Virus record (IMG/VR): IMGVR_UViG_3300048997_000273
Location: 1 to 24,915 of that record
Direction: 5' to 3' (one strand)
DNA: 24,915 nt
From: a virus
Taxonomy: Duplodnaviria > Caudoviricetes
Part shown: positions 3,075 through 24,915 of the stretch, piece by piece
How the letters are laid out: every line of letters begins with the position of its first letter
Numbering within the stretch: position 1 is the stretch's first letter
Notes under the pieces: generated by a model
Seen by the model: the letters and a program-made list of their open reading frames with translations, nothing else
What the model was told of the DNA's origin: nothing
Databases searched by the model: none
Made by a program: the position numbers and the translations under genes

Positions 3075-3377
3075 TCATTTGCTGAGCAAGACCTTGATGC
3101 CGAGCCACACCGCCCCGACAAACCCCGTCACGATAATTGTAATCACAGCCTTGAAGGTATAGCTCTGCGCCTGTTCGACGCTTTTGCGCCAGCGTCTTAG
3201 GTGCTGGAAGTCCGCGCGCAATTCCTTGCGGTCCTCTTCCTCGATTCCAAAGGAAGTCAGGATGGTTGCGATGGTTCGGAGAACCAGGGTATCAATATCG
3301 TCGCGATGAAACCTTTGTTGTTCGGCCAACGTCTCGACGACAATAGCTCTGATATCCTCGTCGGGTATGGCGCTCAT
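3075..3377 (-). CDS. Lysis-cassette protein with C-terminal transmembrane helix (100 aa)
   Basis: ATG at 3377 (MSAIPDED) with GGAG upstream. Helical N-terminal region plus hydrophobic C-terminus. Last gene of the lysis cluster. Confidence 0.65.
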   Translation of the reverse strand: MSAIPDEDIRAIVVETLAEQQRFHRDDIDTLVLRTIATILTSFGIEEEDRKELRADFQHLRRWRKSVEQAQSYTFKAVITIIVTGFVGAVWLGIKVLLSK

Positions 3378-3396
3378 GGTTCGACCAACTCCAATG

Positions 3397-3780
3397 TCAT
3401 CGTTTGATGATCCTCGCGACGTTTTCAAATCCCCGTTTGGCGAAATAGAACGAGACCACAAGGTTCGATGTAACGGACGCAAACCCCGCGAGAGGATCGG
3501 TCGTTCCGAGTCCCAACACCTTGTCCCACACCAAAAGTTTGCCAAAATAGATAGCGACGCAAAAACCCATCAACTTGTCGGGTTCGTACCAATGCCCGAT
3601 TTCGGCGATACGATATTGCGAGATCGCGCTCGTTTCCGACACTTGCGCCGCGATTTCGCTCGCCGCCAAATCCGCAGCGATCTTGTTGTCGACGTTGCCG
3701 GCCTTCAGCTTGGCATTATAGGCATCGACCAATCCCTTGATGACCGGGCCGCCCAGGAAGGAGATGATCGCCATCCACAT
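3397..3780 (-). CDS. Putative holin-like membrane protein (127 aa)
   Basis: Amphipathic N-terminus, two C-terminal hydrophobic segments and basic tail (SFYFAKRGFENVARIIKR), resembling 3-TM holin families. Downstream of the endolysin. Confidence 0.6.
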   Translation of the reverse strand: MWMAIISFLGGPVIKGLVDAYNAKLKAGNVDNKIAADLAASEIAAQVSETSAISQYRIAEIGHWYEPDKLMGFCVAIYFGKLLVWDKVLGLGTTDPLAGFASVTSNLVVSFYFAKRGFENVARIIKR

Positions 3781-3781
3781 C

Positions 3782-4024
3782 TCAACTTACCTTTCGAATT
3801 GACCGCAACCGGGCGATGATCGTCACGATGGAGATACCCAACAAAATCCGGCCGACAATCTTCGCATCGCCAATCGCGATGGAGATTTGATCCCTCAGGT
3901 TCGGGTCGCCCAATGCGTCCGCAACCGTATCAATGGCCTGCATCAGAGTACCCGCGAGAGCCAGGCAGTAACTCCACGCGATGGTCAAAGAATTGAGGCA
4001 GCCGGCCTTGATGCGCGTCCACAT
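3782..4024 (-). CDS. Small two-TM membrane protein, holin/antiholin candidate (80 aa)
   Basis: ATG at 4024 (MWTRIKAG). Two hydrophobic segments and a basic C-terminus. Tightly packed with its neighbours. Confidence 0.65.
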   Translation of the reverse strand: MWTRIKAGCLNSLTIAWSYCLALAGTLMQAIDTVADALGDPNLRDQISIAIGDAKIVGRILLGISIVTIIARLRSIRKVS

Positions 4025-4026
4025 GG

Positions 4027-4176
4027 CTAGAGCGCCGCCTTGAGCGCGGCAACTTTGGCCTCGAGCGCCCTGATGTAAGATTCTGCGCCGGTGACCAGGA
4101 CCGTGATCTTGTCCTTCGTGAACCAGCACAATGCAAACCCGGCAGCAACGGCGGTGAAAGCAACTATTGGCGTCAT
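4027..4176 (-). CDS. Small membrane-anchored coiled-coil protein (49 aa), absent from the ORF track
   Basis: MTPIVAFTAVAAGFALCWFTKDKITVLVTGAESYIRALEAKVAALKAAL*. ATG overlaps the endolysin stop (ATGA), AAGGA RBS upstream, and it fills the gap to the next gene exactly. Confidence 0.7.
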   Translation of the reverse strand: MTPIVAFTAVAAGFALCWFTKDKITVLVTGAESYIRALEAKVAALKAAL

Positions 4177-4892
4177 GGTCGTTTCCTTATGAAGTTGAAG
4201 ATGGCGAAGAGCACGGAAGCGATGAACGCGCCGATGGAGCCCTTTGACGGATGACCGATGGAGGGCTTTGCGATGTCCGGCGAAGGAATCTGGATGGTCG
4301 GGGCGGGTCGGGCTGAGGCAACCGGTACACCCGAAAAGGCGATGCTCGGATCGAGCTTCATCATCGCCAGAAGCAACCCGGCGCAGCCGAGTTGACGGTC
4401 GACCGCTTCGGCGTCGTAGACACCGTCGCGGACATATTTTCCCGATATGTATTGATCGGTACCCGCCCAGATATAAGGCGACGGCCTGCCGCGGGCGGCA
4501 TAACCAAGCCCGTTATATTCCTCGAGCATGGTCAGCGTGCCGCCGATGCTCCAGTCCTTGTTGCGCGCGGCATAGGGCGGGCAGTTGATCAGCGCATCGA
4601 CCGCCGCCTCCGCCCACGATTCAAATGGCCCGCGTCCAGCGGGCACGTGAACCGAAACCTTGTTCCAAGGGTCGCCCTGCGCCAACGACCGCGTCCAGTC
4701 CTGAGAGGATTCCCGTTCGTGGACGACTGCGATGACGGCCCAAGGCACGCCGGTTTCTGAAGAAACCGCCCGATAGACGGATTTAGCCAAGGGAGAGACG
4801 AGATGTGTTGCAACAGAGGAGAAATCCCGCGTCAGCCCGACCTTCGCCCAGCGCTCCGCATTCGCGCGTTTAAGCGCGACTAGATCGGTCAT
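4173..4892 (-). CDS. Endolysin, lysozyme-like family (COG5526-like; 239 aa)
   Basis: Start MTDLVALK at 4892. Motifs IAVVHERES, LAQGDPW, VHVPAGRGPF, LEEYNGLGY, PSPYIWAGTDQY, GKYVRDG, QLGCAG. C-terminal amphipathic helix. Confidence 0.8.
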   Translation of the reverse strand: MTDLVALKRANAERWAKVGLTRDFSSVATHLVSPLAKSVYRAVSSETGVPWAVIAVVHERESSQDWTRSLAQGDPWNKVSVHVPAGRGPFESWAEAAVDALINCPPYAARNKDWSIGGTLTMLEEYNGLGYAARGRPSPYIWAGTDQYISGKYVRDGVYDAEAVDRQLGCAGLLLAMMKLDPSIAFSGVPVASARPAPTIQIPSPDIAKPSIGHPSKGSIGAFIASVLFAIFNFIRKRP

Positions 4893-4916
4893 TACTTGCT
4901 CACCGTGAGTGTGTGG
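4882..4916. repeat. Copy 1 of the endolysin start/RBS region
   Basis: AGATCGGTCATTACTTGCTC (4882-4901) matches 6134-6153 at 19/20, with gapped similarity continuing about 15 nt. Confidence 0.8.
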
Positions 4917-4951
4917 GATAGATAGGCGTGCCTTGGAAGTGGTAGCCGCCA

Positions 4952-6037
4952 GTGGAAAAAAATAACTTTTTACCGCGCATTGAATCGTTGCGCGGTATCG
5001 CTGCCCTCGTGGTGGTCGGCTATCACGTCGGTGGTCAACTATCGGAAAGCCCCGCATATGGCGGGTTGGACGCTTTCGCCTACCGGACACTTGTGGCGCT
5101 TTCAAACGGCGTTGGCGCCGTCGTTACCTTTTTTGTCTTGAGCGGCTTTGTGCTTGCGCGATCGCTCGACGGAAATTCCGATCCAATCAGATTCTTCCGA
5201 AGCCGCTTATTTCGGCTGTTTCCAGCGGCGTTCGCCGTCGTCTCATTGCTGACCGCCCTTCACTGGCGGTTCGGAATTTACGTTGGATACGAAGCATCGT
5301 TCGACCCAATCGACGTCATTCTGAATATGCTGATGATCCGAAGCGATATTAACGGCGTGATGTGGTCGATGACGGTCGAATGCGCGGCAACGCCATTAAT
5401 CCTGTTGAGCTTCTGGCTATTTCGTAAATATGGAGAGCGGCCGCTTTGGAGTCTGGTCGCAATTCTTCTCGTTTTGTCTTCTTGGGGACCCTACGTTCAT
5501 CTGCTCGGCGGCTTCACCAGTCTGGCGCCCTTGTATGCTTTCGTCGTCGGAGTGCTCTTACATTTTCGGGGCGCCTCGATTGCGTCGCTGATCGGCCAAA
5601 AGCGAGCGACCGTTGCGGGTATTGCCGCAATGGCTGTCTTTTGTTTCTGTGGAACGAGGACACAAAGCGCGCTGGTTTTGCTGCTGGAATGCCTGAGCGC
5701 CGCGACATGGATCGTGTTGATCGTCTGGCATCCGACGAAAAATCTCTTCAAGCCGCTCGACTTCAAGCTCGTTCGGTTTTACGGGCGGATTTCGTATAGT
5801 TTCTATCTACTCCACCACCTGGGCATCTCGTTTGCTTTTCGCCTTTTCGATCCATTGGCTCTCAACGCGTCAGGAGTACCTTTATCCATCACAATGGCTT
5901 TTGCGACTCTTGGATCTATCCTGTTGACGACGCCGGCAGCCTATTTGGCCTGGCGGTTTATCGAGGTTCCTGCCATCAGACTTGGATCAATATTGGGCGA
6001 GCCATCGACCCTGCGGGCGAGTAGGCAAACCTCTTGA
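4952..6037 (+). CDS. Acyltransferase family 3 (OafA/Oac-like) membrane O-acyltransferase
   Basis: IESLRGIAALVVVGYH, FFVLSGFVL, RLFRLFP, WSMTVE, GRISYSFYLLH, WRFIEVP, with many TM segments. Confidence 0.9.
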   Translation: MEKNNFLPRIESLRGIAALVVVGYHVGGQLSESPAYGGLDAFAYRTLVALSNGVGAVVTFFVLSGFVLARSLDGNSDPIRFFRSRLFRLFPAAFAVVSLLTALHWRFGIYVGYEASFDPIDVILNMLMIRSDINGVMWSMTVECAATPLILLSFWLFRKYGERPLWSLVAILLVLSSWGPYVHLLGGFTSLAPLYAFVVGVLLHFRGASIASLIGQKRATVAGIAAMAVFCFCGTRTQSALVLLLECLSAATWIVLIVWHPTKNLFKPLDFKLVRFYGRISYSFYLLHHLGISFAFRLFDPLALNASGVPLSITMAFATLGSILLTTPAAYLAWRFIEVPAIRLGSILGEPSTLRASRQTS

Positions 6038-6133
6038 TAAGCCGTGACGACGCTCGCATCGTTGCGATAATTACGTGCGCCGCCTCTCGGGTTAACGTGG
6101 ACATTTTTCCAGGACTTCCATTTCCCGTACCTG

Positions 6134-6171
6134 AGATCGATCATTACTTGCTCCACTATGGAGTGTAGTGG
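6134..6171. repeat. Copy 2 of the endolysin start region, heading a degenerate minus-strand remnant (MIDL...WKNVHVNP)
   Basis: AGATCGATCATTACTTGCTC versus copy 1. Encodes EQVMIDL versus EQVMTDL. Confidence 0.75.
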
Positions 6172-6201
6172 TATTTTTCCTACTCAAATGGAGAGCGCTG
6201 C

Positions 6202-6981
6202 ATGAGAGACGAAGCTGCAGGATTTTATGTTGGCGTAATCAATCAACTGATCGAAGCAGGCACGGTATCAATACCCGATAGCGTTCTTGTCGTTTGTGGT
6301 GGCCCTTTGGACGAAATGGTGATGCGCCAAGCCGGGCTGTCTGATTTCACGATTTCAAATCTGGACGATGGAGCAGCTAACCATCGGCAAGATGCGGAAA
6401 ACCTGACCTTTGACGATGGGTCATTCGATATCGTGGTGGTTCACGCTGGGCTACACCATTGCCATTCGCCGCACCGCGCATTGCTCGAAATGTACCGTGT
6501 CGCCCGCAAGGCGGTAATCGTTCTAGAAGCGCGGGATAGCCTCGCCATGCAGATAGCTAAGTTGGCGGGGTTTACGCCTGATTTCGAACTGGAGGCCGTT
6601 ACCCACGAAGGCTACGAAAGCGGCGGCGTAGGTAACGGTCCAATTCCGAATTTTATATATCGATGGACAGAGCGTGAAGTTGAAAAAACCATCCGAAGCT
6701 TCGACCCAGCCCATGTAGAACAGATTAGATATTTTTATGGTCTGCGGTTGCCTAGTCTTCGCTTTGAAAAAACAAATAGACCGTTACGGCGCATTGCACT
6801 CAGAGCTCTTAGGCCTGCCGCAATAGCGTTTTCAAAATTATTTCCGAAACAGGGAAATCAATTCGGGTTTGCGATTATCAAGACGGGAAAGCTGAGACAT
6901 TGGCTTGAATACAATAACGGAAAAATACGCGTTTCGAGCCAGCGCGCCGAACAACTTGGTCAATCGTATAGGCCTACCTAG
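6202..6981 (+). CDS. Class I SAM-dependent methyltransferase (Methyltransf_11-like)
   Basis: VLVVCGG motif I, QDAENLTFDDGSFDIVVVHAGLHH, ALLEMYRV. GGAGAG RBS. Confidence 0.85.
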   Translation: MRDEAAGFYVGVINQLIEAGTVSIPDSVLVVCGGPLDEMVMRQAGLSDFTISNLDDGAANHRQDAENLTFDDGSFDIVVVHAGLHHCHSPHRALLEMYRVARKAVIVLEARDSLAMQIAKLAGFTPDFELEAVTHEGYESGGVGNGPIPNFIYRWTEREVEKTIRSFDPAHVEQIRYFYGLRLPSLRFEKTNRPLRRIALRALRPAAIAFSKLFPKQGNQFGFAIIKTGKLRHWLEYNNGKIRVSSQRAEQLGQSYRPT

Positions 6982-7107: not shown

Positions 7108-8082
7108 TTAAATTATCCGCAAAATATAATTACAGATGATCGTTGGCTGCGTAGTCCTAAACGGATTGCTAGTTCCGCCTTGCGGGGTGCCGGCGAATGT
7201 TGATACGGCCTGAGAAGCGGAGAAATTCGCTGGCTGTTGTGATGGGCCACCGCTGCCTGTTTGAACTGATCCGCCGCCCGTCACAGCATTGCTAGATATC
7301 GTAATTGCTCCATTGCTGATCGAGCCGGACGGCGTATACGGCGGCAAATTTGGCACGAATAGTGTGGTATTTTCCAAGCCGCCCACCGCGCCCAAATTGG
7401 TAGAATTTCCTCCGAAATAAGTTGATGTCAGCCGCGATGCCGAATTCTCCATCATCGCCGAGACACGACCTGTTTTATCAGGAACGTTGAACGTCGTCGA
7501 ACCGTCGCCGGCACCAAACCGCGTTCCCCATCGGGCGAATGCAGTGGCATAAGTGGTCCGAGAGATCGCCTGGCCTTGTGGGAAAATGAAGGAACTGTTC
7601 GGCGTGATCGTATCCCAATAATCCATGCCGCCTAGTAGCGGCACGCTATACGGACTGCCAAAGAAGCCTTGCAGATAGAATGCACCGTCCGCGTTGTTAT
7701 ATACTGCGACGTAAGGCGTGCCTTGAATGATGGTTCCGGCGAGCAATTCGGTTGAGGGCGCGGAGCGCAGTGGTTTTGCACCCAACGAATCTACATTCAG
7801 CGTCACCGTCGCCCCGTTGGTGGTGTGTGGCGTGAACGCGATCATTTGTCCGTTGAGATGGGCCAGCGTATCGAATACCTCGTAAGAGGAAACCGTGTAT
7901 GCGGTCGACGTGCCTCCGGTGACGATGGCGCCGGCGATATCGTCGCGGTATTTCGCGGTCGCCGCCATCATGGCCCGCGCGGAATCGTTCACACTGGAAG
8001 GCGATTGTCCTTCGGCCCAGTTGATCGTGCTGTCTGCGGTGGCGTCGGACGCGGCCGTCTGCGACCATTTATAGAGTGTCAT
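7108..8082 (-). CDS. Tail fibre protein with tail-collar domain
   Basis: N-terminus WSQTAASDATADSTINWAEGQSPSSVNDSARAMMA, collar motif GQAISRTTYATAF...FGAGDGSTTFNVPDKTGR, C-terminus QPTIICNYILRII. Confidence 0.85.
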   Translation of the reverse strand: MTLYKWSQTAASDATADSTINWAEGQSPSSVNDSARAMMAATAKYRDDIAGAIVTGGTSTAYTVSSYEVFDTLAHLNGQMIAFTPHTTNGATVTLNVDSLGAKPLRSAPSTELLAGTIIQGTPYVAVYNNADGAFYLQGFFGSPYSVPLLGGMDYWDTITPNSSFIFPQGQAISRTTYATAFARWGTRFGAGDGSTTFNVPDKTGRVSAMMENSASRLTSTYFGGNSTNLGAVGGLENTTLFVPNLPPYTPSGSISNGAITISSNAVTGGGSVQTGSGGPSQQPANFSASQAVSTFAGTPQGGTSNPFRTTQPTIICNYILRII

Positions 8083-8195: not shown

Positions 8196-8447
8196 TTACC
8201 TCCGGATATTTTTACGTTCTCCCTGTCCCTCGCCGCCCAAGTCGAGATATTGCGAACAGGGGCACGCCGGCGCACGAGCGGTCAGGAGGTTGCGGATCAC
8301 GCCAATCGGCACGCCAGGGCTTTCCTTCGCGACGGCATCGGCTCTCGCGTTGACGATCGCCTCGATATCGTCACGGATTTGCTTGATACGATCTTCAAGC
8401 GGGGCCGCGAGCGTCGCTTTCGTGTTCTTCGAAATCATCCGCTTCAT
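8196..8447 (-). CDS. Small hypothetical protein (about 83 aa) with CxC motif
   Basis: C-terminal part of ORF 8196-8756. ATG at 8447 or 8438 after AAGGA. Helical, ends ARAPACPCSQYL. Confidence 0.55.
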   Translation of the reverse strand: MKRMISKNTKATLAAPLEDRIKQIRDDIEAIVNARADAVAKESPGVPIGVIRNLLTARAPACPCSQYLDLGGEGQGERKNIRR

Positions 8448-8901
8448 TTCCTTTTGTTGTTTCGCGTTGCGGCGATTGTACCGCCAGCTTCTGCCGCAGG
8501 GAGGCGGCCTCGTTTTGCGCGCGCCGCAACGCCTTTTCGCGCTGCTCCTCGTGCGCGGCGACATAGACCTGCAAATCGTAGGGCAACGTCTTGAAGCGTT
8601 GCTTGCGGTCGGCCGGCCAGGAACGCGGCGGTGCGATGCCGGCCGCTTCGCTGATCGCGGCGGCCACGACGCCGCCGAGCGTGGGGTCGGCAAGCCCGTG
8701 CATAACATGGGCGCGTGAAATTTCCCGAACCGCCGGCCACAGCCGTTCAATGCCAAGTGAGGCGCAATCGGCGATGAATTTGGCCACGGCCGCCGGCGCC
8801 GCCGGACAGAAGGAGGCCCCGTTCAATTCGCACCATCGTGCAAACAGGGGCGCGGCACGCGATCTCGCCTGGGCGAGCGCCGCCAGCACCGGGCTCGTCA
8901 T
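8395..8901 (-). CDS. Hypothetical protein: tyrosine-recombinase N-terminal (SAM-like) domain fused to a phage scaffold-like helix
   Basis: FARWCELNG...PAAPAAVAKFI...ISRAHVMHGLADP resembles the Cre-type core-binding domain. APPRSWPADRKQRFKTLPYDLQVYVAAHEEQRE resembles a podophage scaffold motif. No catalytic domain. Confidence 0.65.
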   Translation of the reverse strand: MTSPVLAALAQARSRAAPLFARWCELNGASFCPAAPAAVAKFIADCASLGIERLWPAVREISRAHVMHGLADPTLGGVVAAAISEAAGIAPPRSWPADRKQRFKTLPYDLQVYVAAHEEQREKALRRAQNEAASLRQKLAVQSPQRETTKGNEADDFEEHESDARGPA

Positions 8902-8909
8902 CGCGCCCG

Positions 8910-9176
8910 TCAGCGTTTGGCTTTGCGCAGCGCCTCATGCACGCCGCCCATTTTCTTGCGCAGCTCCATGAGTTGTACCTGCCGACGCAGATTGTGCGTA
9001 CCGGAATCGATCTCGCCTCTCAATTCGGTATCGAAATTTTCCAGCGCCGCCGCCCGCTTCTTCAAGCCGTAGAGCGCGAAATTTTCCACCATCTCGTCGG
9101 CCGGCATCGGCTTGCCGCTGAGTTTCTCGGTGACGGATTCCGTGCGTTCGATGAAGTCCCGGTTGTCATCGGCCAT
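8910..9176 (-). CDS. Hypothetical helical protein (88 aa)
   Basis: AGGA RBS, high-GC codon usage, operonic spacing. Confidence 0.7.
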   Translation of the reverse strand: MADDNRDFIERTESVTEKLSGKPMPADEMVENFALYGLKKRAAALENFDTELRGEIDSGTHNLRRQVQLMELRKKMGGVHEALRKAKR

Positions 9177-9334: not shown

Positions 9335-9774
9335 TTAGCGCGGTCGTTGGGTAAACCACGGTTGCAAGGGATCGTCGTTATAGAACCCGCGCAGTTGATC
9401 GGCTTGCGATGACGGTGCCACTTGCGCTGGGTCCTGCGGATTGATGCCCGCCATGGCGGCGATCCAGTCAGTGATGCCACCTGAGGAGTTCAAACTATCG
9501 GGGAGAGCGAACTGCGCTGTGGGTGCACTCGGTTCGAATGCGGATGCCGGCCAGTTATTCCGAAATCGATCGCCGTCTTAGCGTCAAAATCCGCTGGAAC
9601 GATGATGTACCCATTAGCATTCGTCCCGATATGATTGTGGCCCGAATCGAAAAGATTATAGGAACTCTGGACCTGATTGGGCGATACGATCGGATTTCCG
9701 TTTATGTCTCTCAGAAATTTTGCTTCAACATACTGTTTCTTGTCATTGGTCCGCACATAAAATGTATCCGGCAT
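9335..9774 (-). pseudogene. Decayed cargo/toxin-like gene: AT-rich N-terminal domain joined out of frame to a Pro/Ala/Gln-rich C-terminus
   Basis: ORF from 9774 (AAGGGA RBS) reads well to about AIDFG. A different frame, 9550-9335, reads PASAFEPSAPTAQFALPDSLNSSGGITDWIAAMAGINPQDPAQVAPSSQADQLRGFYNDDPLQPWFTQRPR* and has no upstream start. Confidence 0.6.
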
Positions 9775-9811: not shown

Positions 9812-10405
9812 TCACCTACAGTCTGCGTTCAAAACATAAAAATTATCGCGCAAGTGCGTTGCGTAAAACCTGCAGGCTCTCATTTCATCCAGGTCCCCAC
9901 CAAATGCGTCAATTTCATCCAGGGAGAGGCGGCCATCGGGGAGAGAGCGGGAGCCAGAATATGCAAATAGCTTATTGACGCTTCCTGACGACTGCCATTG
10001 TAGAATAACTGCCGCAGCTCCACCACCAGCAGCGCGTATCTGATTCCTGAAACCACGCTCATTAAGCAATAAGAAAACCCTGTCGGCGAGAGAAAAAAAT
10101 TCACTCCTGAACCAAAACGACAGGCATGCGAAGGCGACGAAGAGAAAACGGCAAGCCACCGCTGATCGTTTTTGCCGGCCTACCAAAGCAACGATCGCGC
10201 TAATCGCAACCACGGCCGTCAAGGAAAAAAACACAATTAGAAACAATGCATCGAGAGTGAAGCTATCGCGAGATTCACCAATCGCTAAGTAGCTGTCGAG
10301 GAGGCTCACAAAAAAATAAAATCCGCCTGCCAAAAGAAGTGACAGCAGACAGAAAACTCGCCTTCCCACCAAGCCAACTTGCTGTGCGTAGTATTTACGT
10401 AACAC
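9812..10405 (-). CDS. Membrane protein (3 TM plus soluble C-terminal domain), immunity-like
   Basis: Three N-terminal hydrophobic segments, AT-rich composition, GGGAG RBS. Confidence 0.6.
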   Translation of the reverse strand: MLRKYYAQQVGLVGRRVFCLLSLLLAGGFYFFVSLLDSYLAIGESRDSFTLDALFLIVFFSLTAVVAISAIVALVGRQKRSAVACRFLFVAFACLSFWFRSEFFSLADRVFLLLNERGFRNQIRAAGGGAAAVILQWQSSGSVNKLFAYSGSRSLPDGRLSLDEIDAFGGDLDEMRACRFYATHLRDNFYVLNADCR

Positions 10406-15527: not shown

Positions 15528-15698
15528 TTCCCAAAGCGGAGCTGACCGCAAGAATCACAAGCCGTAACCCAAGCTGGCGCACGTCATTGAGAAATCGGGC
15601 ATCTTGTCCTATATTAAAGTTGGCCGACCGATCGGGGAAAAGCCCAGCCCGGTCTCCCGCGGAGACACTGTCAATAAGTTTGCCTCCGGGTCGGTCAC
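15528..15698. repeat. Degenerate tandem copy of the 3' part of the BECR-like gene (pairs with about 15749-15919)
   Basis: Ungapped alignment at offset 221, with shared blocks TCTTGTCCTATA, CCGATCGGGGAAA and TTTGCCTCCGGGTCGGTCAC. Confidence 0.9.
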
Positions 15699-17381: not shown

Positions 17382-18854
17382 TCACAACGTGCCGCTTGTG
17401 GTGAGATCGGGAATGACGCCGGCGCAGAATGTCCATGATGTCGCCGCGGGAATTCTCACCTTGAAGCGCGAATAGCGGGTGTCTCGCCTGACGTCGCAGC
17501 GACCGGTTCTCGCATTGACCAACACTTCTCTCCCCGCCGTGGCGATCGCCGATGGCGTATCCCGATATGATACGGAACCGTACAGCGTGGCCGCATCTGT
17601 CACGGGGCGAAAGCCCCGGATCGCGACGCGGTTTTCATCCGTGCCCTGCTCTGCACTTTCCATCGTTGCTTCCAGATTGGTCCCGCGAAAGAAGCCGAGC
17701 ACGTGCGCGCCCGAAAACTGTGCGATTTCCGGCTGCACCGCGGTCGCATAAGCGTCGAGGCTCAATGTCATGGCATCCAATGAGGGAGAAATGCTGTCGA
17801 GATTTTCCAGCGTCAGACCGGTTTGCGAAATGCCGAGCAGATATTCCCCCGTGACCGAAACCGGGAAAAATCGATCCAGCAGAAAATCGTAGCCGAGCAA
17901 CTTGTCGTAAGTCCCGACCGTGCCGGAGGCCGATTTATAAGCCCAGTAGACCCGCGTGCTTCGCGGATCCGCCGCCCCCATGAACAGTTGCAAATTGCCG
18001 TTGTCGAGATCGGCAAGAAATGTGCGGTCGACCTTTTCGCGGCCGATCTGCACGGGCACGCCGCCGGGCTCGATCTTGTGAAAGCCCTGGCCGGCATAGA
18101 AGAAGATACGCTCGCCCGCCCGAATGATCGAATAGGGCGCATAGAGGCCCTTGTCCTGGGTGATGCGGTCGATCTGAAAGATGATCGGTGACCCCGGCAC
18201 ATACGACATCCGCCGGATCGCCTGATCCTGAAAGATGATCCCGGCCTCGCCGCCCGCAACACCTCGGACAATGCCGCCGTCGGGAAAGTCCTGAAAGTCG
18301 GAGGAAGCGACACCGCTGGTCCAGCTCGTGGAGGCGTTGAAGCTGTTCAACCCCGACCACTGGATCCGGTAAGGCGTTGAGAGCAGGCCGGACAACACCA
18401 GGAAACGACCGACCACGCTGATATAGGCCGCCTGTGGCGGTGAACCCAAGGCATTGCTAAAGGCCGTCGCGGATGAGAGATCGAACACCTGCAGGACGGC
18501 GTTCGCTTGCGTTGCGAATACAAGATTTCCCGTTTGCGCAAACTGCCATTGGGCGGTTGAAGTCAGCGCGCCATAGCTTCCCCCGCCCAAGGAAACGTCC
18601 GTCCATGTAAAGTCGGTATTGTTGAGTCTGTAGAGCTTCGTTGCAGTGCCCGCGAAGGCAATGACCGTTCCATCCGATTTCAGCGCGTAGAACGCGCCCC
18701 TGCACGCGGAGGGAAGCGCCGAGGTGTAGGCCGAAAAGGATGGAAACGGCCCATAGCCGTCGCCGCGCGGAACGACGTTGAGGATGTTCCTCGTGGCCTG
18801 GCCCTCATAATCGCTGACGTCGGGGCGATAGTCACCATAAGCGAGCAGCGGCAT
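17382..18854 (-). CDS. Podophage tail nozzle / stabilisation protein (P22 gp10 / T7 tubular B analogue)
   Basis: 490 aa beta-rich protein (beta-propeller-like; RIQWSG, YSRFKVRI), located after the adaptor and before the ejection genes. Confidence 0.75.
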   Translation of the reverse strand: MPLLAYGDYRPDVSDYEGQATRNILNVVPRGDGYGPFPSFSAYTSALPSACRGAFYALKSDGTVIAFAGTATKLYRLNNTDFTWTDVSLGGGSYGALTSTAQWQFAQTGNLVFATQANAVLQVFDLSSATAFSNALGSPPQAAYISVVGRFLVLSGLLSTPYRIQWSGLNSFNASTSWTSGVASSDFQDFPDGGIVRGVAGGEAGIIFQDQAIRRMSYVPGSPIIFQIDRITQDKGLYAPYSIIRAGERIFFYAGQGFHKIEPGGVPVQIGREKVDRTFLADLDNGNLQLFMGAADPRSTRVYWAYKSASGTVGTYDKLLGYDFLLDRFFPVSVTGEYLLGISQTGLTLENLDSISPSLDAMTLSLDAYATAVQPEIAQFSGAHVLGFFRGTNLEATMESAEQGTDENRVAIRGFRPVTDAATLYGSVSYRDTPSAIATAGREVLVNARTGRCDVRRDTRYSRFKVRIPAATSWTFCAGVIPDLTTSGTL

Positions 18855-19462
18855 TATTCAGTCTTCCAGGGATCGGGTTGAATGACGGCTGGCGTCCACG
18901 TTTCCGTCGGCTTTGGTTGCGCGGTCCAGGCTTGGGATGACGTTGTATCTCGCGTCCACGCCTCATCCGAAATCGCGCTGGCACTCCAGCTGTCGGCATC
19001 GAAGGTTCGAGGAAACCACGCTTCGAAATCGCGCGTAAAGGTCGAGGGATAGCCGGTGACGACGTAGGCGCCGGTGCCGGACACCAACCCGACGCGCAAT
19101 GGCGCCGTATTTCCCATCATCAGATAGGTGCCCGCCGATGACACGAATTTCGTCGTGAAAAGCGCCGCATTGCCCGATACCGGATAACTTCCCACGCTCG
19201 CCGGCAGCATAACGAAAAACGGCGCCGCATTTCCGTTGAGTGAATAAGCGGCGAACGAAGCCGAGATTGTGCGCGAGAAGGTCGCGGCCTTGCCGGCCAC
19301 AACGAAATTTCCGGCGCTCGATAATCCAAATATCGAGAAAGGGGCGGAAATGCCAGAGACGGCGAAAACGCCGGTTGATGCCACCAATATGCCGATTGGC
19401 GCATGCTTCACCCGAAGACGCTTGATCGTCCTTCGTTTGAAGACGTGAAAGCGATCTGACAA
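18854..19462 (-). CDS. Structural protein with ~22-aa repeats (GxYxxxGxxA) and Trp-spaced C-terminal repeats
   Basis: Repeats GVFAVSG, GNFVVAG, AAYSLNG, GSYPVSG, GTYLMMG, GAYVVTG. Tail has DSWS, EAWT, QAWT, ETWT, DPWK. Start uncertain (TTG). Confidence 0.65.
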   Translation of the reverse strand: MSDRFHVFKRRTIKRLRVKHAPIGILVASTGVFAVSGISAPFSIFGLSSAGNFVVAGKAATFSRTISASFAAYSLNGNAAPFFVMLPASVGSYPVSGNAALFTTKFVSSAGTYLMMGNTAPLRVGLVSGTGAYVVTGYPSTFTRDFEAWFPRTFDADSWSASAISDEAWTRDTTSSQAWTAQPKPTETWTPAVIQPDPWKTE

Positions 19463-19481: not shown

Positions 19482-19949
19482 TCAGACGAGTTCGGCGAAC
19501 GTCACCGATCCCGACACGTTCATTGAGGCGCTTGGCGCGGTGCCGAGACGAAGACAGAAGGCCTGGCTCGGCGCGATGATGATCCGATCGTCCTGGCCGG
19601 CGGGCGACCAATAGAATCCGTTGAGGAAGTTGAATTCATCGGCAAGCAGCGTGGCTATGGTGCCGGTAGATGTGGCGAGCGTGGTGTTGTTGATGGTCGC
19701 GGTGACGGCGGACGCCGTGTCGTTCGGCGTCATCGGCCTCGGCGTAACCGCAGTCCCGCCGGTGATGGTGGCCGTCGCCGGCACGCGCTTGAATGTGATA
19801 TCTTTCGCTTCCCATGCGGTGAGCGTCTTCTGCCCGAGATTCACCGCATGAATCTCGATCGGAACGGTCGATGCTGCGAGCAGTGTGATAAGGTCTTGCG
19901 CCGCAGCGACAGCCACGCTGTCGATACTGACAGTATAAATTCTTGCCAT
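19482..19949 (-). CDS. Beta-rich putative virion structural protein (155 aa)
   Basis: T/A/V-rich, AAGGGA RBS, within the structural operon. Confidence 0.7.
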   Translation of the reverse strand: MARIYTVSIDSVAVAAAQDLITLLAASTVPIEIHAVNLGQKTLTAWEAKDITFKRVPATATITGGTAVTPRPMTPNDTASAVTATINNTTLATSTGTIATLLADEFNFLNGFYWSPAGQDDRIIIAPSQAFCLRLGTAPSASMNVSGSVTFAELV

Positions 19950-19965
19950 TATTCAAGGTGTCCCT

Positions 19966-21072
19966 TCAGTACGAAAATCCCTGACGCCTCTCGACGAAAT
20001 TGCGAACCCGGATTGGTTTTATCGCCTGCACGCTGTTCGACAGAACGACGATACCGGAGCCGCCTTGGCCGCCATTGCCAGAGCCGCCGTTGTTGACGTT
20101 TCCGCCGCCACCACCACCGCCGCCGGTATTGGCCACGCCGGGGCCGCCATTGACCGCACCAACCGCACCACCTCCGCCGCCACCTGAACCACCACCGCCT
20201 GGATTCGTGCTTGGGTTGGTATCGCCGCCACCCCCGCCGCCGCCGGCATAGGTGACGGGCGATCCGCTGATCGATGACGAAACCCCTGCGCCCCCGTTGC
20301 CGGAATTTGGCGAGGAGGCGTTGTTTCCGACCGCGCCTGCGCCGCCACCGCCGCCCGAAACACGTTGATTAGCTGCGCCGCTTTGGCCGCCGCTATTACC
20401 CTGCCCCGCCGTGCCGCTGCCGCCGGAAGTCGTGCCGGTTATCGACATGCCTGCACCGCCGCCAGAACCGCCCGTGGAGCCGGCGAAAGTATTGCGAGCC
20501 CCGGCGCCGCCGCCGATCGCGGTGAATCCGCTAAATACCGAGTTGGCGCCGTTGGTCTCGGCGATCCCACCTCCCGCGACGTTCACGGTAAAAGAGCCAG
20601 CGGATAGCGCGGTCGTTCCGGTAAGAAGCCCTCCCGCTCCACCGCCGCCGCCGCCGATCGAACCGCCTCCCCCTCCGCCGGCGACGATCAGATAATCCGT
20701 CGCGATCACACCACCCGGAACGGTCCATGTGGATGTTCCGATTGTCGTGAATTGCGTGACGGTCGCAAACTCATAAACGAGGACGCCGGTAGAAAGACCT
20801 GGATGCCATGCCGGCGTCGGCATATCCCACTGGTCAGGCGATGGCCCGATATCTTGCAGCGCGCGCCAGAACGTCAGCGCCGCGACCAGATCGTCGAAAT
20901 TCCCTTGCCAGAGAATCGCGCCGCTGATGCCGCGCGCAACGATCTTGTAGTGGAATTCATCTCCCTGTGGCTCGAACCATTGAACAATGCGCCGGGACTT
21001 GAAGGCCTCGGAAAGAAGCAAACGGCCATCGCGGAATTGAGTGCCTGCCAGATCGACATTCCAGATTGTCAT
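19966..21072 (-). CDS. Glycine-rich-domain virion protein (fibre/adhesin-like)
   Basis: YLIVAGGGGGG...GGGGAGG, YAGGGGGG, ANTGGGGGG, GGSGIVV: the phage glycine-rich (polyglycine-II) domain pattern. Confidence 0.8.
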   Translation of the reverse strand: MTIWNVDLAGTQFRDGRLLLSEAFKSRRIVQWFEPQGDEFHYKIVARGISGAILWQGNFDDLVAALTFWRALQDIGPSPDQWDMPTPAWHPGLSTGVLVYEFATVTQFTTIGTSTWTVPGGVIATDYLIVAGGGGGGSIGGGGGGAGGLLTGTTALSAGSFTVNVAGGGIAETNGANSVFSGFTAIGGGAGARNTFAGSTGGSGGGAGMSITGTTSGGSGTAGQGNSGGQSGAANQRVSGGGGGAGAVGNNASSPNSGNGGAGVSSSISGSPVTYAGGGGGGGDTNPSTNPGGGGSGGGGGGAVGAVNGGPGVANTGGGGGGGGNVNNGGSGNGGQGGSGIVVLSNSVQAIKPIRVRNFVERRQGFSY

Positions 21073-21082
21073 GTGATCGGCT

Positions 21083-21514
21083 TTACGTAATCGTCAGGAT
21101 GCCGTTGGTCAGATCGGTCACGACCGTAAAGGTGTTGCCATTGGTCAGCGTGATCGGGCCACCGTAATCCCACCAGCCGATCAGCGGCTTGGTCGCGGAC
21201 GTCGAGTTATACAGCACCGCAAATTCAAACGGCCCGATCGAGCCGCCAGACGCGGTCCATGACGGCTGCGTCCCCGCCGTGAATTTGAAAACGCCCGAGG
21301 CCTGCGCGCCGCTCGTGGTTCCGATAGTCGCGCCGCCTGCGGTGTAACCGTTCGCGGTCGCAAGATCGGCGGGCGTGTTGTAAACCGTATTGGTCGCGAC
21401 CGGCGCGGTGTTGGTCAGGTAGACTTTATAGACCTGGGCGGTTCCGGTCTTCATATCGTGCAGGGCATTCGCCACGTCCTGCACAAAGCAATTGAATTTA
21501 TTGAATGATGCCAT
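21083..21514 (-). CDS. Putative virion structural protein (143 aa)
   Basis: MASFNKFN...NGYTAGG...WTASGGSIGPF..AVLYN...LIGWWDYG, a pattern common in phage structural genes. GAGGG RBS. Confidence 0.75.
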   Translation of the reverse strand: MASFNKFNCFVQDVANALHDMKTGTAQVYKVYLTNTAPVATNTVYNTPADLATANGYTAGGATIGTTSGAQASGVFKFTAGTQPSWTASGGSIGPFEFAVLYNSTSATKPLIGWWDYGGPITLTNGNTFTVVTDLTNGILTIT

Positions 21515-21522
21515 ATTGCCCT

Positions 21523-21625
21523 CATGGCGTTTTCAAGCGAGGCGGATACCGCTTCGCTTGAAGGAACGCGTCAAACAAAGAAATAGAGCCTCCGTCCGAT
21601 TCAATCGGAACGGAAAAGACGCTAG
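21523..21625. repeat. Rhizobiales-type interspersed palindromic element (two hairpins, ending in CTAG)
   Basis: Inverted repeats TTCAAGCGAGGCGG/CCGCTTCGCTTGAA (21532-21562) and TCCGTCCGATT/AATCGGAACGGA. Family assignment is from recall. Confidence 0.65.
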
Positions 21626-21697
21626 TGGAGCGGATTTGACATTCGCTACCCACCCAGCCGCATACACGGGAAGCGAATGTCAGAATCGGACCGCTAG
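21622..21697. repeat. Second CTAG-bounded palindromic element at the adaptor stop codon
   Basis: CTAG at 21622-21625 and 21694-21697. Internal inverted repeat TGACATTCGCT (21637-21647) / AGCGAATGTCA (21672-21682). Confidence 0.65.
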
Positions 21698-22347
21698 AAA
21701 ACCTGCCCCGAGACCCGAACCGTCATCGGTCCGGCGTTGAACGCCGACGTCAGTCCGAGATTGTTCAAATCGTTCAGCGCCGTGCCAAAGCCGAGGCCCC
21801 AGGTCTGGATGCGACCGTCTTCCTTGACGTAAGGCGCCGATTCAAGGAGCGCCCCGTAGAGATAAAGATCGGGAGCCAGCGTCAACAGCCAGTTACACGC
21901 GTTCGAAGCCAATGCCGGAATGGTCTGCCGGTACACCATCTCGATGGTGTAGGCTGCATCTGGTGTTGGCGCGATTTCGATTTCGTCGCCAAACACCGTG
22001 AAGTAGCGCGGCTGCGCCACGACGTCGGACGTGCTGAAGCGGTATTCGTCCATCTGCGTGCCCGACTTGAATTCGAGAGACGGTTTCCCGGTCACGCTCG
22101 ACAATCGCACCCGGCGCATCGACTGGAAATCCGCCGGCAGCGAAATGAATTCGGGCTCGCTCGATGCGGTATTGACGAGCGCCGTCGAGCGGCGCTCCAT
22201 TTGGCGAACGAACAATTGCCGGTTGAACTTCGCTTCGGCGAGCTGGATGAAAGTCGGGATCCGCGCAATCAGCGTCGTATCCTGATCCCTCGCGAGATAT
22301 TCGCTCACCGCTGATTGCAGCGACGTATAATCGAGGATTTGCGTCAC
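21694..22347 (-). CDS. Head-tail adaptor / tail tubular protein A-like (217 aa)
   Basis: GTG at 22347 overlaps the upstream stop. Motifs YTSLQSAVSEYLAR, IPTFIQLAEAKFNR, LPADF, NWLLTLAPDLYLYGAL. Confidence 0.8.
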   Translation of the reverse strand: MTQILDYTSLQSAVSEYLARDQDTTLIARIPTFIQLAEAKFNRQLFVRQMERRSTALVNTASSEPEFISLPADFQSMRRVRLSSVTGKPSLEFKSGTQMDEYRFSTSDVVAQPRYFTVFGDEIEIAPTPDAAYTIEMVYRQTIPALASNACNWLLTLAPDLYLYGALLESAPYVKEDGRIQTWGLGFGTALNDLNNLGLTSAFNAGPMTVRVSGQVF

Positions 22348-22676
22348 GGTAACCCCGCTGACCATCCGGCTTGTAGTTTCGGCCTATCGGTTCGCAAATA
22401 GGCCCATTCCGGATCTTCGAGTTTCCTTTGCACGATCAGATCGAACTCAGGCGTGAACATCCGCAAGGAGGTGTTGCCCCTGGCGTGTTCCTCGTCCAAC
22501 CATTTGACGTAAATGACGTTGGGGATGCGGGCGACGTGGCGTCCCCAATCGCCGTGCTGCTCGTCGGCACGCGATTGCTGGTTCCACTCCAGAATCGGCT
22601 CGACATCCTGCACGTGCTCGATCGCAAGATCTTTGCCGTTGCGATCGATGTGGGCGCGGATCGTAACGCCGTCCAT
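22344..22676 (-). CDS. Conserved podophage hypothetical protein (110 aa)
   Basis: ATG at 22676 (TGATG coupling). Motifs QDVEPILE, RHVARIP, KLEDPEWAYLRT. Confidence 0.75.
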   Translation of the reverse strand: MDGVTIRAHIDRNGKDLAIEHVQDVEPILEWNQQSRADEQHGDWGRHVARIPNVIYVKWLDEEHARGNTSLRMFTPEFDLIVQRKLEDPEWAYLRTDRPKLQAGWSAGLP

Positions 22677-22987
22677 CACGACATTTCCGTGGTCCACAAC
22701 GTTCCCGCCGTGGCCGTGACGAGCCCGTTGGTGGCCGCCTTGATGGCGGAGATACGCTGGCCGGGATTGACGATGACATACTCGATGACATTGGCCGGAA
22801 GAAACGTGTCGGCCGTCGTCGCCGTTTGCGCACCATCGCCGATCCGGTAGCAACAGGCCGCATTCGCCACCAGGCGAAGCTGGTAGGTCGACGGACCGAA
22901 TGCGTTTGTTATCGCCACGCTGGCGTCGAACGCGATCGTCTGCGTCGCCCCGACGCGGGAGGACGGATGTTTGGGAAAGAACGACAT
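22676..22987 (-). CDS. Small beta-rich structural protein, capsid decoration candidate
   Basis: 103 aa, A/T-rich, immediately after the capsid genes. Confidence 0.7.
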   Translation of the reverse strand: MSFFPKHPSSRVGATQTIAFDASVAITNAFGPSTYQLRLVANAACCYRIGDGAQTATTADTFLPANVIEYVIVNPGQRISAIKAATNGLVTATAGTLWTTEMS

Positions 22988-23350
22988 TTATGCGGCCCTC
23001 ACAGCGACGGAGAAGTGCATCGGGATCGACCCGCCCGACGCGCCCGACGGGGTCAATACGATCACGTCGTCCTCGTTCAGGTAGGTGGGTGAAGGCGGCG
23101 TTGCTGAAAACAACTGGCCCGCGGCCGAGCCGGATTGCGGCACGGCGAACGTTGCAAGCGTGGTTGTGTTGGCGGACACGGTGACGGTGGCGTCCGTGGT
23201 GGTGATGGTTCCGCCGAGAATGCCGGTTGCTTTCAGAAGCCGGCAGCGAAAGGGAACGCGAATATAAGCCGGGACAGGCGCAGTGCCGCAGGAAGGCGTG
23301 TAGGCCGTCAGGTCAACGGAGTTGAACGTATGATTGCCGGGCAGTGGCAT
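22988..23350 (-). CDS. Small beta-rich structural protein, capsid decoration candidate
   Basis: 120 aa, GGAG RBS, first gene after the major capsid gene. Confidence 0.7.
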   Translation of the reverse strand: MPLPGNHTFNSVDLTAYTPSCGTAPVPAYIRVPFRCRLLKATGILGGTITTTDATVTVSANTTTLATFAVPQSGSAAGQLFSATPPSPTYLNEDDVIVLTPSGASGGSIPMHFSVAVRAA

Positions 23351-23388
23351 TTTTGGTCTCCAGGGAAATGGGGTCAGGCTGTTGCCAG

Positions 23389-23430
23389 GTCATTCCGGGT
23401 TGGCCCATCAAGGACCAGACCCGGAATGAC
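23389..23430. repeat. REP-like palindrome or attenuating hairpin after the major capsid gene
   Basis: GTCATTCCGGGT (23389-23400) / ACCCGGAATGAC (23419-23430), a perfect 12-bp inverted repeat. Confidence 0.75.
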
Positions 23431-23441
23431 GGCGTGAAAAA

Positions 23442-24404
23442 TCAGGACGCGGTGTTGTCGAAAATGCCGCCGCTCGATTTTTCATTGCGGGCGACCAACG
23501 CGTATTCCGCCAGGATCTGACGACGATCGGAGTCACCCGTTTTGGCCAGCGGAATCGAAATCATGTTTCGTCCGTTCAGATAGGCCACCGCCCACTTGTC
23601 CATTTCCAGGACGAGCACGTCGCGGGTCCGCTGGAAGCGGTTTGCCACCACCTTCAGCTTTCCGAAATCGGACTCATAGGCATCGACCGAAGCCACGATT
23701 TTCTTCGACTTGGCTTCCTCGATCGCGGTGGAACGACCGGTGAAGGTCGAGAACACCTGCTTGTTGAAGGCGCCCGTGAAGATGGTGTCTGGCTTGCCGC
23801 CATTGGTCCAGATCGAGGACAGCACGCTTTTCAGCCGCGCTTCGGTGAACGCAATCTGCGTACCATCGGTACGCGCGCCGGTGCCATCGACGGGAGACGG
23901 GTCGGCGGGAGAGCCGGCCGTCCCCTTCGAGGTGTTGGACGCGATCCATGACAGGATCGAGGCCGTCTGGCGGGCTGTGGTCGTGTTGCCGGTGACCTTG
24001 GCCTGGTTGGTGCCGACCAGGATGGTTTCGATGTCACGCTTGAGCTCGAGACCCTTGAGCAGTTCCTGATACGCAAGTTCGTTGTCGCGGCCGGCGTGCT
24101 CGACGGCCTGCTGCGTGCCCGACACCCGGGCCACCTTGTAGGAGATTTGGCAGAGGTTGCCGAGACGAACCGTCGGCGTGGTTGCATTGGTGGTCGGATC
24201 GTCGCCTTCGAGCTGGGCGTTCGCCGAGGAAGCCGGAGCAAGCGCCTGGGTCTGCCATTCGTGATTGACGGCCGCGGCCTTTTCTTTTTCCGCCCCGCTC
24301 AGGAACGGGGTGTCGGTCGGGTCGATGCGATAGATGATATCGCTCAGGTCTTCGCGGTTGCCAATCGCCTGGTAGCTGGCAAAGGTGGAAGTCGGTAGAG
24401 CCAT
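23442..24404 (-). CDS. Major capsid protein, SU10/DUF5309-like
   Basis: GNREDLSDIIYRIDPTDTPF, HEWQTQAL, NAQLEGDD, RLGNLCQI, ELKRDIE, YESDFG, LAKTGDS. AAGGA RBS. Confidence 0.9.
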   Translation of the reverse strand: MALPTSTFASYQAIGNREDLSDIIYRIDPTDTPFLSGAEKEKAAAVNHEWQTQALAPASSANAQLEGDDPTTNATTPTVRLGNLCQISYKVARVSGTQQAVEHAGRDNELAYQELLKGLELKRDIETILVGTNQAKVTGNTTTARQTASILSWIASNTSKGTAGSPADPSPVDGTGARTDGTQIAFTEARLKSVLSSIWTNGGKPDTIFTGAFNKQVFSTFTGRSTAIEEAKSKKIVASVDAYESDFGKLKVVANRFQRTRDVLVLEMDKWAVAYLNGRNMISIPLAKTGDSDRRQILAEYALVARNEKSSGGIFDNTAS

Positions 24405-24640
24405 AGTCGTTATTTCCTTGGATGATGCCGGCGTTGGGCGTCACACATTGTGCCGCGCACAACTGGTGAGCAGCCTTAACGAGCCGGTGCGTTGGTCTCG
24501 ATGAAGACCTGGACGGGTTTTGGAGTGAGAAGACTTCGGCTTGCTCGATGGCGCGGAAGCTTGGCTTCCGGTTCGGCTCCCTTGAGGTCTTCACCGGGCG
24601 CCTGCGCGTCTCGCAGGGTCGGCGTTGGCTTTCGCCAATT

Positions 24641-24674
24641 AAAAAGCCCGCGACCGATTTTCCGGCGCGGGCTT
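24641..24674 (-). terminator. Leader terminator/attenuator hairpin
   Basis: AAGCCCGCG (24644-24652) / CGCGGGCTT (24666-24674), followed by a T run on the minus strand. Confidence 0.65.
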
Positions 24675-24689
24675 AAATCTTGCGATGGT

Positions 24690-24723
24690 GAATATATGCC
24701 GGTGATTTGCCCGACGTGTCAAG
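24690..24723 (-). promoter_or_regulatory. Putative sigma70-type promoter for the structural operon
   Basis: Minus strand reads CTTGACA (-35, 24723-24717), 17 nt, then GCATATATT (-10-like). Confidence 0.55.
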
Positions 24724-24913
24724 CGAAGCGAACCACGCGACTCGCCAATCGCCTGACATCGGGCGCGACAGCGAGCGCGGCGTTAGAATCTAGTTCAGAA
24801 TCGAGACTGGAGAGTGGAACGCTAAAAGAATCTTCCGGCTCGGCTGGCGCGGGCGGCGTATCTCCGAAATATTTCAAAACACCGCCAGTGCTCTGTTGTT
24901 CGGGGAAGGGATT
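24719..24913 (-). CDS. 3' end of an ORF running in from outside the window; low-complexity C-terminus with DVRRLASR motif
   Basis: 65 open codons NPFPEQQSTGGVLKYFG...APDVRRLASRVVRFA*. The stop codon overlaps the -35 box. Not in the ORF track. Confidence 0.55.
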   Translation of the reverse strand, partial: NPFPEQQSTGGVLKYFGDTPPAPAEPEDSFSVPLSSLDSELDSNAALAVAPDVRRLASRVVRFA

Positions 24914-24915
24914 GC

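Follow-up and report, generated by a model that had tools for sequence, protein, structure and literature searches.

A virus-class record of 24,915 nt, IMGVR_UViG_3300048997_000273 (Duplodnaviria; Caudoviricetes), carries the head and tail genes of a short-tailed phage interspersed with toxin-like and immunity-like genes, and raises the question of whether it is a truncated phage or a particle kept by its bacterial host. We analysed this stretch over its full length and refer to it as the window; coordinates are those of the window, and genes lie on the minus strand unless otherwise stated. The window is best explained as one half, from capsid to lysis genes, of a temperate podovirus that has been domesticated and fixed in the Bradyrhizobium chromosome. 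Domestication in Bradyrhizobium is well supported by the sequence comparisons described below, and we lean slightly towards the further proposal that the element makes short-tailed particles which load toxins in the manner of ejection proteins and deliver them by injection to bacteria nearby.

The window is the whole record, which is an entire assembly and is classed as viral and truncated. Its end lies 511 nt in front of the capsid gene, and a contig from sequencing run X1, possibly the source, reaches about 990 nt beyond that end, so that the absence of portal and terminase genes from the window is uninformative by itself. An earlier note, which had stressed this absence, was literally correct for the window, but the absence is an artefact of the contig end, as relatives carry both genes upstream.

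Among genome contigs, a capsid search yielded 79 loci, and 40-80 kb were fetched around 25 of them, comprising 21 elements with the window's architecture and four comparators in which the scaffold gene precedes the capsid gene. The genes for the small and large terminase subunits (TerS and TerL) and for both portal halves lie upstream in 20 of the 21 elements, and the remaining one starts within the portal region. Where undeleted, the 21 elements share the order TerS, TerL, portal N, portal C, a 99 aa gene, capsid, tail, small ejection protein, scaffold, collar and lysis. A GNAT gene (207-635 in the window; PF00583) forms the right border in 20 elements and identical host genes come next in 19. 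The portal-less and terminase-less shell suggested previously is not what these genomes hold, since TerS, TerL and the split portal belong to the element and are under purifying selection in the relatives. In the viral collection, the portal is present in 26 of 28 long contigs of the clade and early genes in none of the 28. The podovirus virion module (terminase, portal, scaffold, capsid, adaptor and nozzle) is complete, terminase and portal being seen in relatives only, and of the three podovirus ejection proteins that together form a conduit across the envelope only the small one is present.

The SU10 portal profile is split over two open reading frames (ORFs; 2-163 and 172-593) in 19 of 20 elements and in the four comparators; in genome G115 portal N and C are fused into one ORF of 712 aa. 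The portal of phage ppBeUSDA76-2 also consists of two coupled ORFs (L356:16371-18582), the second of which is unannotated in its record. According to the accessible part of its description, ppBeUSDA76-2 is a spontaneously produced podovirus (bioRxiv 2022.05.06.490963), and since a virion-producing phage has it, a split portal is compatible with virions. An in-frame fusion of portal N to a toxin was considered and rejected, as portal N stops at nearly the same position in most elements, with a scatter of about 15 residues.

Among the comparators, three encode an integrase homolog. The two that were annotated in detail are ordinary prophages with two large ejection proteins each, and carry repressor or recombination and initiator genes. 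The integrase, YqaJ, ERF, initiator and repressor of two related prophages had no match in 22 clade regions, and neither had their two large ejection proteins beyond one stretch of 25 residues. The lack of integrase, replication genes and large ejection proteins in the window thus extends to its relatives. A viral, truncated record, a portal and terminase located upstream in relatives and a patchy capsid are all features that an ordinary inducible prophage cut by a contig end would show. We nevertheless regard that reading as extremely improbable: the window clusters with G002 within the clade that occupies the fixed locus (support 0.98), this clade has no early genes, and the window shares its relocated scaffold, promoter and right border. 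The earlier note had held that such a prophage just beyond the window, patchily distributed, would speak against a host device. Half of that picture is found, in the upstream portal and terminase and in the patchy capsid, but no integrase or replication genes accompany them, and the patchiness results from repeated deletion at one locus.

The element genes evolve under constraint. In a group of eight genomes, 19 element genes have a median pairwise dN/dS, calculated with a Nei-Gojobori script, of 0.05-0.19, and the range is 0.02-0.20 and 0.04-0.25 in groups of five and three genomes; flanking host genes give 0.05-0.10, and 0.05-0.08 in the group of eight. Walker A and B motifs are intact in 19 of 20 uninterrupted TerL genes, and the TerL of G002 is frameshifted. 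A tree of core genes and one of rpoB, built from 16 genomes, share 9 of 13 splits, and 1000 label shuffles gave a mean of 0.14 and a maximum of 4 (G002, G133 and G161 were omitted for a missing or partial rpoB and G277 and G028 for missing core genes, as was the window). The last element gene is found in 190 of 301 genomes, and all 12 capsid-less genomes that were chosen for having this gene near the regulator show deletion scars at the element locus, with nine junction patterns. In these scars promoter copies, often with TerS and a TerL stump, are joined to the end of the lysis region. The scars at the locus and the wide distribution of the last gene indicate that the element is ancestral at one site and has been repeatedly deleted. 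Extra copies of the last gene occur elsewhere in some genomes, G001 having four, including on a second contig.

Features of a temperate prophage, namely integrase or attachment sites, early genes, variable sites and horizontal spread, were not found. Synteny, selection, tree congruence, scars and the anatomy of the cassettes described below together uphold the idea of a host-maintained, replication-less device at a fixed locus; the comparison that the earlier note had proposed yielded one locus, a largely shared rpoB topology and low dN/dS.

Several observations weigh against this view of the locus. There is one supported tree conflict (G125), and core dS is 2.8 times rpoB dS, though similar to that of the host flank. 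A capsid match exists in 48 of 301 Bradyrhizobium genomes, with at least 80% identity in 31, so the structural cluster is usually lost and is retained by about 10% of genomes. Large deletions affect 3 of the 21 elements and core-gene frameshifts 2. Loss from most genomes through many junctions, damage in 5 of 21 elements and broken cargo genes would all suit a cryptic prophage in slow decay, in which the core genes would look conserved either through recent decay or because the locus serves as a landing pad for immunity and toxin-antitoxin cassettes, and no working particle is made. This explanation appears rather unlikely to us, given the low dN/dS that capsid, nozzle, portal halves and terminase show across three groups of hosts with a dS of 0.4-0.9, and the conservation of rearrangements foreign to the parent phages: the relocated scaffold, a fusion of a Cre domain to a scaffold segment, a graft on the portal tail and an extra promoter ahead of the capsid.

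What the domesticated element carries differs from genome to genome. Eight of its junctions differ by kilobases, the junctions at the gene next to the nozzle and at the lysis genes being constant, and the variable DNA is lower in GC by about 4-5 points. Of 188 variable ORFs selected, 150 were scanned and 25 had a Pfam match; the set includes a WHH nuclease followed by SMI1/KNR4, Tox-ART-HYD1, NucA/NucB, six M23 peptidases, CHAP, Ivy and DUF4265. The ends of the cargo proteins are conserved according to insertion site, with a leader A behind portal C, a leader B behind the ejection gene and a leader C mostly near a gp14-like gene, and C-terminal cargo motifs lie before the portal halves or the ejection region (30 matches in 18 elements). 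Leader A occurs in 10 of the 21 elements, in nine of them directly after a portal C end that bears a 25-residue motif; the tenth seems frameshifted. The other 11 elements lack leader A. In 12 of 15 other phage loci (several of which are near-duplicates) the motif ends a protein of 434-772 aa and the next gene, of up to 2030 aa, starts with the leader-A peptide; at one of these loci the pair lies behind nozzle and gp14-like genes, which is the ejection-protein slot. Both the portal-tail motif and leader A have a pN/pS of about 0.2. Leader A heads 306 protein clusters at 50% identity, and among its best 80 matches of at least 150 aa, 19 end in HNH-type nuclease, deaminase, CHAP or ART domains. 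The profiles of leaders B and C match the second ejection protein of two prophages at its N-terminus, in the same position (E 0.013-0.014).

Partial duplicates of core-gene ends adjoin the cassettes, an arrangement that would fit cassette swapping by recombination. As in polymorphic toxin systems, a conserved trafficking end is joined to a variable toxin domain, immunity genes are adjacent (WHH-SMI1/KNR4 and toxin-DUF4279), and there are orphan cassettes with homology arms in the form of the duplicated core-gene ends. A family of about 280-350 aa, exported-looking, ending in VIYDP and without a Pfam match, is found in many cassettes (G001, G002, G004, G148), often twice per element, and is perhaps a general immunity protein. 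The retention of ejection-protein ends on bodies swapped for toxins would be best explained by cargo loading, a judgement that we make with modest confidence.

The window has its own set of such genes on both sides of the ejection gene, as the earlier note had seen. The cargo toxin at 12909-13712, whose start overlaps the stop of the ejection gene, consists of leader B, a low-complexity linker and a C-terminal domain at residues 190-267 that also terminates Rhs-type proteins in 6 of 7 longer homologs; a single-sequence fold of this domain (pLDDT 62) matched nothing in the PDB or the ESM Atlas. Its stop is overlapped by a DUF4279 gene (12469-12912; PF14106), the likely cognate immunity gene. 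DUF4279 accompanies this toxin domain in G002, G028 and G164, and in G164 and G028 the two lie behind leader A, so that the pair moves between leaders A and B. A second cargo gene (15711-16364; leader HMM E 7e-14) joins leader C to a weak PBECR1-like nuclease domain (PF18809 at E 0.013, below the cut-off); it is about 200 aa shorter than its closest homolog (P0008), and a duplicate of its 3' part, 77% identical and without an assigned strand, lies at 15526-15698. The immunity-like genes are an ORF on the plus strand with a hydrophobic C-terminal half (14638-15336; homologs in L004 and L009, no family match), a membrane-anchored gene (10543-10974; homologs in G002 cassettes and one scar locus) and a hydrophobic gene without a convincing family match (9812-10405). 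A shortened cassette gene at 9490-9774 corresponds to the N-terminal part of a relative with 273 aa (38% over 77 aa, E 1e-7).

Expression of the element may be under host control. At 24641-24722 lies a promoter-like element composed of TTGACA, a conserved spacer and CATATA, with a GC hairpin and T run about 25 nt further on. This 82-nt element precedes the capsid in 11 of the 21 relatives by a strict pattern and several copies precede TerS, which agrees with the promoter formerly placed directly ahead of the capsid gene. A generic scan for sigma-70 promoters and terminators performed at chance level and did not list it. In our own terminator test the hairpin accompanies 53 of 65 element copies, whereas of 20 dispersed copies, taken from three genomes, 2 have it; one of the 2 is followed by an unlinked leader-A gene. 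At G164:C1:4979754-4980700 (L346, L357) an unlinked promoter-terminator is followed by an orphan leader-A gene adjoining a host gene. The promoter core TTGACACGTCGGGCAA has 11-45 dispersed copies in some genomes (G005, G164 and G003 were searched whole), most of them without terminator, and is nearly restricted to the element in G001 and G002. The dispersed copies may represent a DUF6456 regulon, or a repeat derived from the promoter. The motif may be a mere dispersed repeat as far as the dispersed copies are concerned, but those of the element differ by their terminator.

The gene preceding TerS in the related prophages encodes a DUF6456 protein. In the 13 elements checked, a DUF6456 homolog is located with a GcrA-like gene and a divergent S24 (cI-like) repressor 24-53 kb upstream of the capsid, and 281 of the 301 genomes have a DUF6456 gene. 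Next to the cI-like repressor, on its far side, a gene of 91 aa (L088:14643-14918) resembles small early prophage genes and is another relic of an immunity region. The accessible parts of two reports give DUF6456 as the annotation of GafA homologs (PMC9638019, PMC9765227), and those of a third describe Caulobacter GafZ as an antiterminator acting through an element between -35 and -10 (PMC11150451). The 24641-24722 element is likely an antiterminator-dependent late promoter. We infer that the DUF6456 protein acts on it, and only infer, since the motif is missing from three prophage regions and dispersed in some genomes; the near-universal presence of the regulator may also reflect another job. 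Both of these points count among the weaknesses of the proposal.

A GafA-family regulator with a promoter-terminator like that of the Caulobacter gene transfer agent (GTA) brings up a podovirus-derived GTA, in which random host DNA would be transferred and the toxin and immunity cassettes would be passengers, packaged incidentally or not at all. TerS, TerL and portal are intact and selected, the element is host-fixed, replication-less and under purifying selection as a GTA would be, the RcGTA marker GTA_TIM (PF13547) matched none of five genomes with a Caulobacter positive control matching, and the duplicated core-gene ends next to cassettes suggest recombination with incoming DNA. Against it, the element lacks the large ejection proteins from which podophages build their DNA conduit, and the cargo tags derive from ejection proteins and are selected at the protein level. 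On balance we judge a GTA with idle passengers unlikely.

Since the split portal and the DUF6456 homolog are common to temperate relatives that infect the same genus and have 72% capsid identity, the element could also be a satellite, dependent on a helper, which lends heads and toxin cargo to co-resident temperate podophages or interferes with them. The lack of integrase, origin and mobility, the fixed locus and the host-like tree make this very doubtful.

The reading that we favour, toxin loading into a podovirus particle, could work as follows. The particle is probably still DNA-filled and under host control. In a few cells, the DUF6456 (GafA/GafZ-family) protein encoded in the unlinked cI-GcrA-DUF6456 module would enable RNA polymerase to read through the terminator. 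The tags would recruit cargo into the head, leader A likely by binding to the motif that was grafted onto the end of portal C, and leaders B and C by occupying the slot of the second ejection protein; podophages store their ejection proteins close to the portal and eject them into the cell envelope, as the accessible part of PMC8954989 describes. The intact terminase would likely fill the head with host DNA, creating ejection pressure and perhaps gene transfer. Lysis would free the particles, whose fibres would bind related cells and whose small ejection protein would breach the outer membrane. Cargo that degrades the cell wall could then act in the periplasm, nucleases and deaminases would need a host route across the inner membrane, neighbouring immunity genes would shield kin, and cassettes would likely spread by recombination through the flanking core-gene ends.

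This mechanism has to be set against further difficulties. No homolog of a large inner-membrane-type ejection protein was found in the element, nor in five genomes by a whole-genome search that had no positive control and carries little weight, and the entry of toxins into the cytoplasm is consequently the weak step. Pfam knows nothing in 125 of the 150 variable ORFs scanned or at the end of 55 of the 80 best leader-A proteins. By E-value the link between leaders B and C and the ejection protein is weak, and many cargo genes are broken, two of them in the window. A bolder version, which we put forward tentatively and hold to be possible rather than probable, is a new class of weapon: a host-regulated, DNA-filled podovirus particle in which loading signals of ejection proteins have become modular address tags, delivering hundreds of interchangeable toxins through a short nozzle, with one tag docking on the split-portal motif and the particles shuttling cassettes between strains.

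The remaining genes of the window form an uninterrupted minus-strand run of capsid, adaptor, nozzle-sized protein, small ejection protein, scaffold, collar fibre and lysis-like genes. The capsid-to-lysis operon read by the earlier note is backed by family matches as far as the structural genes are concerned, but the lysozyme and holin labels come from position and hydrophobicity only; the genes concerned had no Pfam, NCBIfam or PDB match. The run begins with the SU10-type major capsid protein (23442-24404; PF17236 E 3e-96, phrog_1328), followed by a 120 aa virion-region gene, likely head decoration by its position, which is kept in relatives (22988-23350; dN/dS 0.07), conserved genes of 103 aa, also in the virion region (22676-22987), and 110 aa (22344-22676), and the tail adaptor (21694-22365; PF24175 E 2e-33). 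Between the adaptor and the next gene lies a palindromic host-type repeat (21565-21697, an inverted repeat with no strand assigned), which draws high depth from unrelated contigs, as expected of a host repeat, and is not at the same place in most relatives; a host-type repeat within the operon had been reported correctly. Then come a conserved tail-region gene of 143 aa (21083-21514; phrog_644), a glycine-rich variable fibre-like gene whose position differs among relatives (19966-21072; PF21722), tail-region genes of 155 aa, rare in relatives (19482-19949), and 202 aa, 22-43% identical to relatives (18854-19462), and the nozzle, similar to tail tubular protein B and assigned by size, position and profile (17382-18854; phrog_3287 E 5e-62; dN/dS 0.05-0.07). 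A conserved 104-aa gene follows the nozzle (16761-17075). The virion assembly gene at 16364-16777 (phrog_25629, phrog_7642) is at the same place in temperate relatives, and by position we take it to be a P22 gp14/T7 IVPA-like assembly gene with a GNAT fold.

The first, small DNA-ejection protein has a C-terminal S74 domain (13712-14782; phrog_4287 E 6e-24, PF13884). Behind it lies the scaffolding protein (11078-12292), recognised by a weak match (phrog_3927 E 3e-4) and relocated in the same way in every clade member that retains it, as the earlier note had it for the window. Conserved genes of 88 aa (8910-9176) and 80 aa (8196-8438; a cluster in 13 elements) lead to the tail-collar fibre protein (7108-8082; PF07484). 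On the plus strand, a methyltransferase (6202-6981; PF08241) and an acyltransferase-3, likely for surface modification (4952-6037; PF01757, phrog_3333), have been inserted. The endolysin-like gene, so labelled by position (4173-4892), is conserved without a family match (dN/dS 0.15-0.17), and its place is taken in G115 by a GH19 gene. Two holin-like membrane proteins, a small one (3782-4024) and a second (3397-3780; phrog_12264, dN/dS 0.06-0.10), precede the last element gene, of 99 aa (3075-3377; phrog_6420), which is the scar in most capsid-less genomes. Between it and the GNAT gene, at 731-2997, we observed a frameshifted MBOAT acyltransferase and a 297-aa gene. MBOAT, acyltransferase-3 and methyltransferase (731-2997 and 4952-6981) may modify the cell surface. 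An Rfam scan of the window gave 0 matches, and NCBIfam nothing useful for 20 window proteins.

The fused gene mentioned above (g168, 8395-8901) joins the helical core DNA-binding domain of a Cre-like protein to the PPRSW segment of the ancestral scaffold. Its model has a pLDDT of 84, and the best Foldseek matches are all Cre at E 0.01, with none at 0.001. The fusion may tether DNA to the prohead. An integrase was rejected for this gene, as the Cre-like binding domain comes without a catalytic domain. More distant clusters of Xanthobacteraceae type (L041, L044, L047, L048, L053, L056, L065 and G215) have the scaffold before the capsid, and their collar gene follows the small ejection gene after no more than about 0.7-1.2 kb, which leaves them also without large ejection proteins. 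G215 has the same promoter and right border as the element, and a high GC content at third codon positions. These clusters are possibly an older form of the same domestication.

If the proposal is true, a capsid-based delivery route would be added to the weapons used between bacteria, in a dominant genus of soil and legume symbionts. The recruitment of podovirus ejection proteins into the head would become testable, natural shuffling having isolated tags and a candidate partner motif, and a GTA-like circuit of repressor and GafA-family antiterminator would be seen on an independently domesticated phage. There would also be a family of virion-producing phages whose portal comes in two pieces, and a large reservoir of toxin domains yet to be characterised. 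Since the window's capsid matches about 1,200 stretches of the viral collection, many records classed as virus may be this host locus.

Tailocins and extracellular contractile injection systems (eCIS) are antibacterial particles derived from phages and released by lysis, and eCIS effectors are loaded by N-terminal leaders. The element differs from them in having capsid, scaffold, portal and terminase, and tube, sheath, baseplate and tape-measure genes were unmatched in family scans of the window. Its nearest relatives are Bradyrhizobium phage ppBeUSDA76-2 (OP596614) and related temperate podophages, which have a 72% identical capsid, the same head-tail order, a PBSX-type TerL, a two-ORF portal, a DUF6456-like gene before TerS and a second ejection protein that starts with a peptide like leaders B and C. 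These phages possess integrase, repressor, recombination and replication genes, a scaffold before the capsid and two large ejection proteins, whereas the element lacks early genes, has its scaffold relocated and carries toxin cassettes. The replication-less, vertically kept head-tail cluster of the Caulobacter and Rhodobacter GTAs, as far as given in the accessible parts of PMC11150451 and PMC9638019, resembles that of the element, and so do their unlinked repressor and GafA/GafZ-family regulator, which has a candidate counterpart in the DUF6456 protein, the conserved sequence between -35 and -10 and the terminator near the start of the operon. In contrast to these GTAs, the element is of podovirus and not siphovirus ancestry, bears polymorphic toxin cargo and keeps its cluster in about 10% of genomes; its SU10-type capsid and the lack of PF13547 place it outside the RcGTA family. 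In Sinorhizobium, the accessible parts of PMC10386132 describe an 'f' cluster of PhiGT1-like prophages, a podovirus structural cluster under selection for which no integrase or attachment site was found and which is called elusive there, and make no mention of toxin cargo, which would set the present element apart. Another related system is that of the MuF proteins, proposed in the accessible parts of PMC3482391, PMC5576092 and PMC12226406 as toxins borne in capsids and found also in prophage remnants. There too a variable toxin domain and an immunity gene lie behind the portal gene and the toxin is proposed to reside in the phage head. The element differs by its short tags taken from ejection-protein ends, its several insertion sites and its host-fixed podovirus, as opposed to mostly siphoviral prophages, and no MuF Pfam domain was found in 37 window proteins, 150 variable ORFs and 80 leader-A proteins. 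No description of this Bradyrhizobium element was found in the published literature, supplements and subscription papers being outside the scope of the search. On the reading that we favour, the element would be a capsid-borne polymorphic toxin system built on an independently domesticated podophage.

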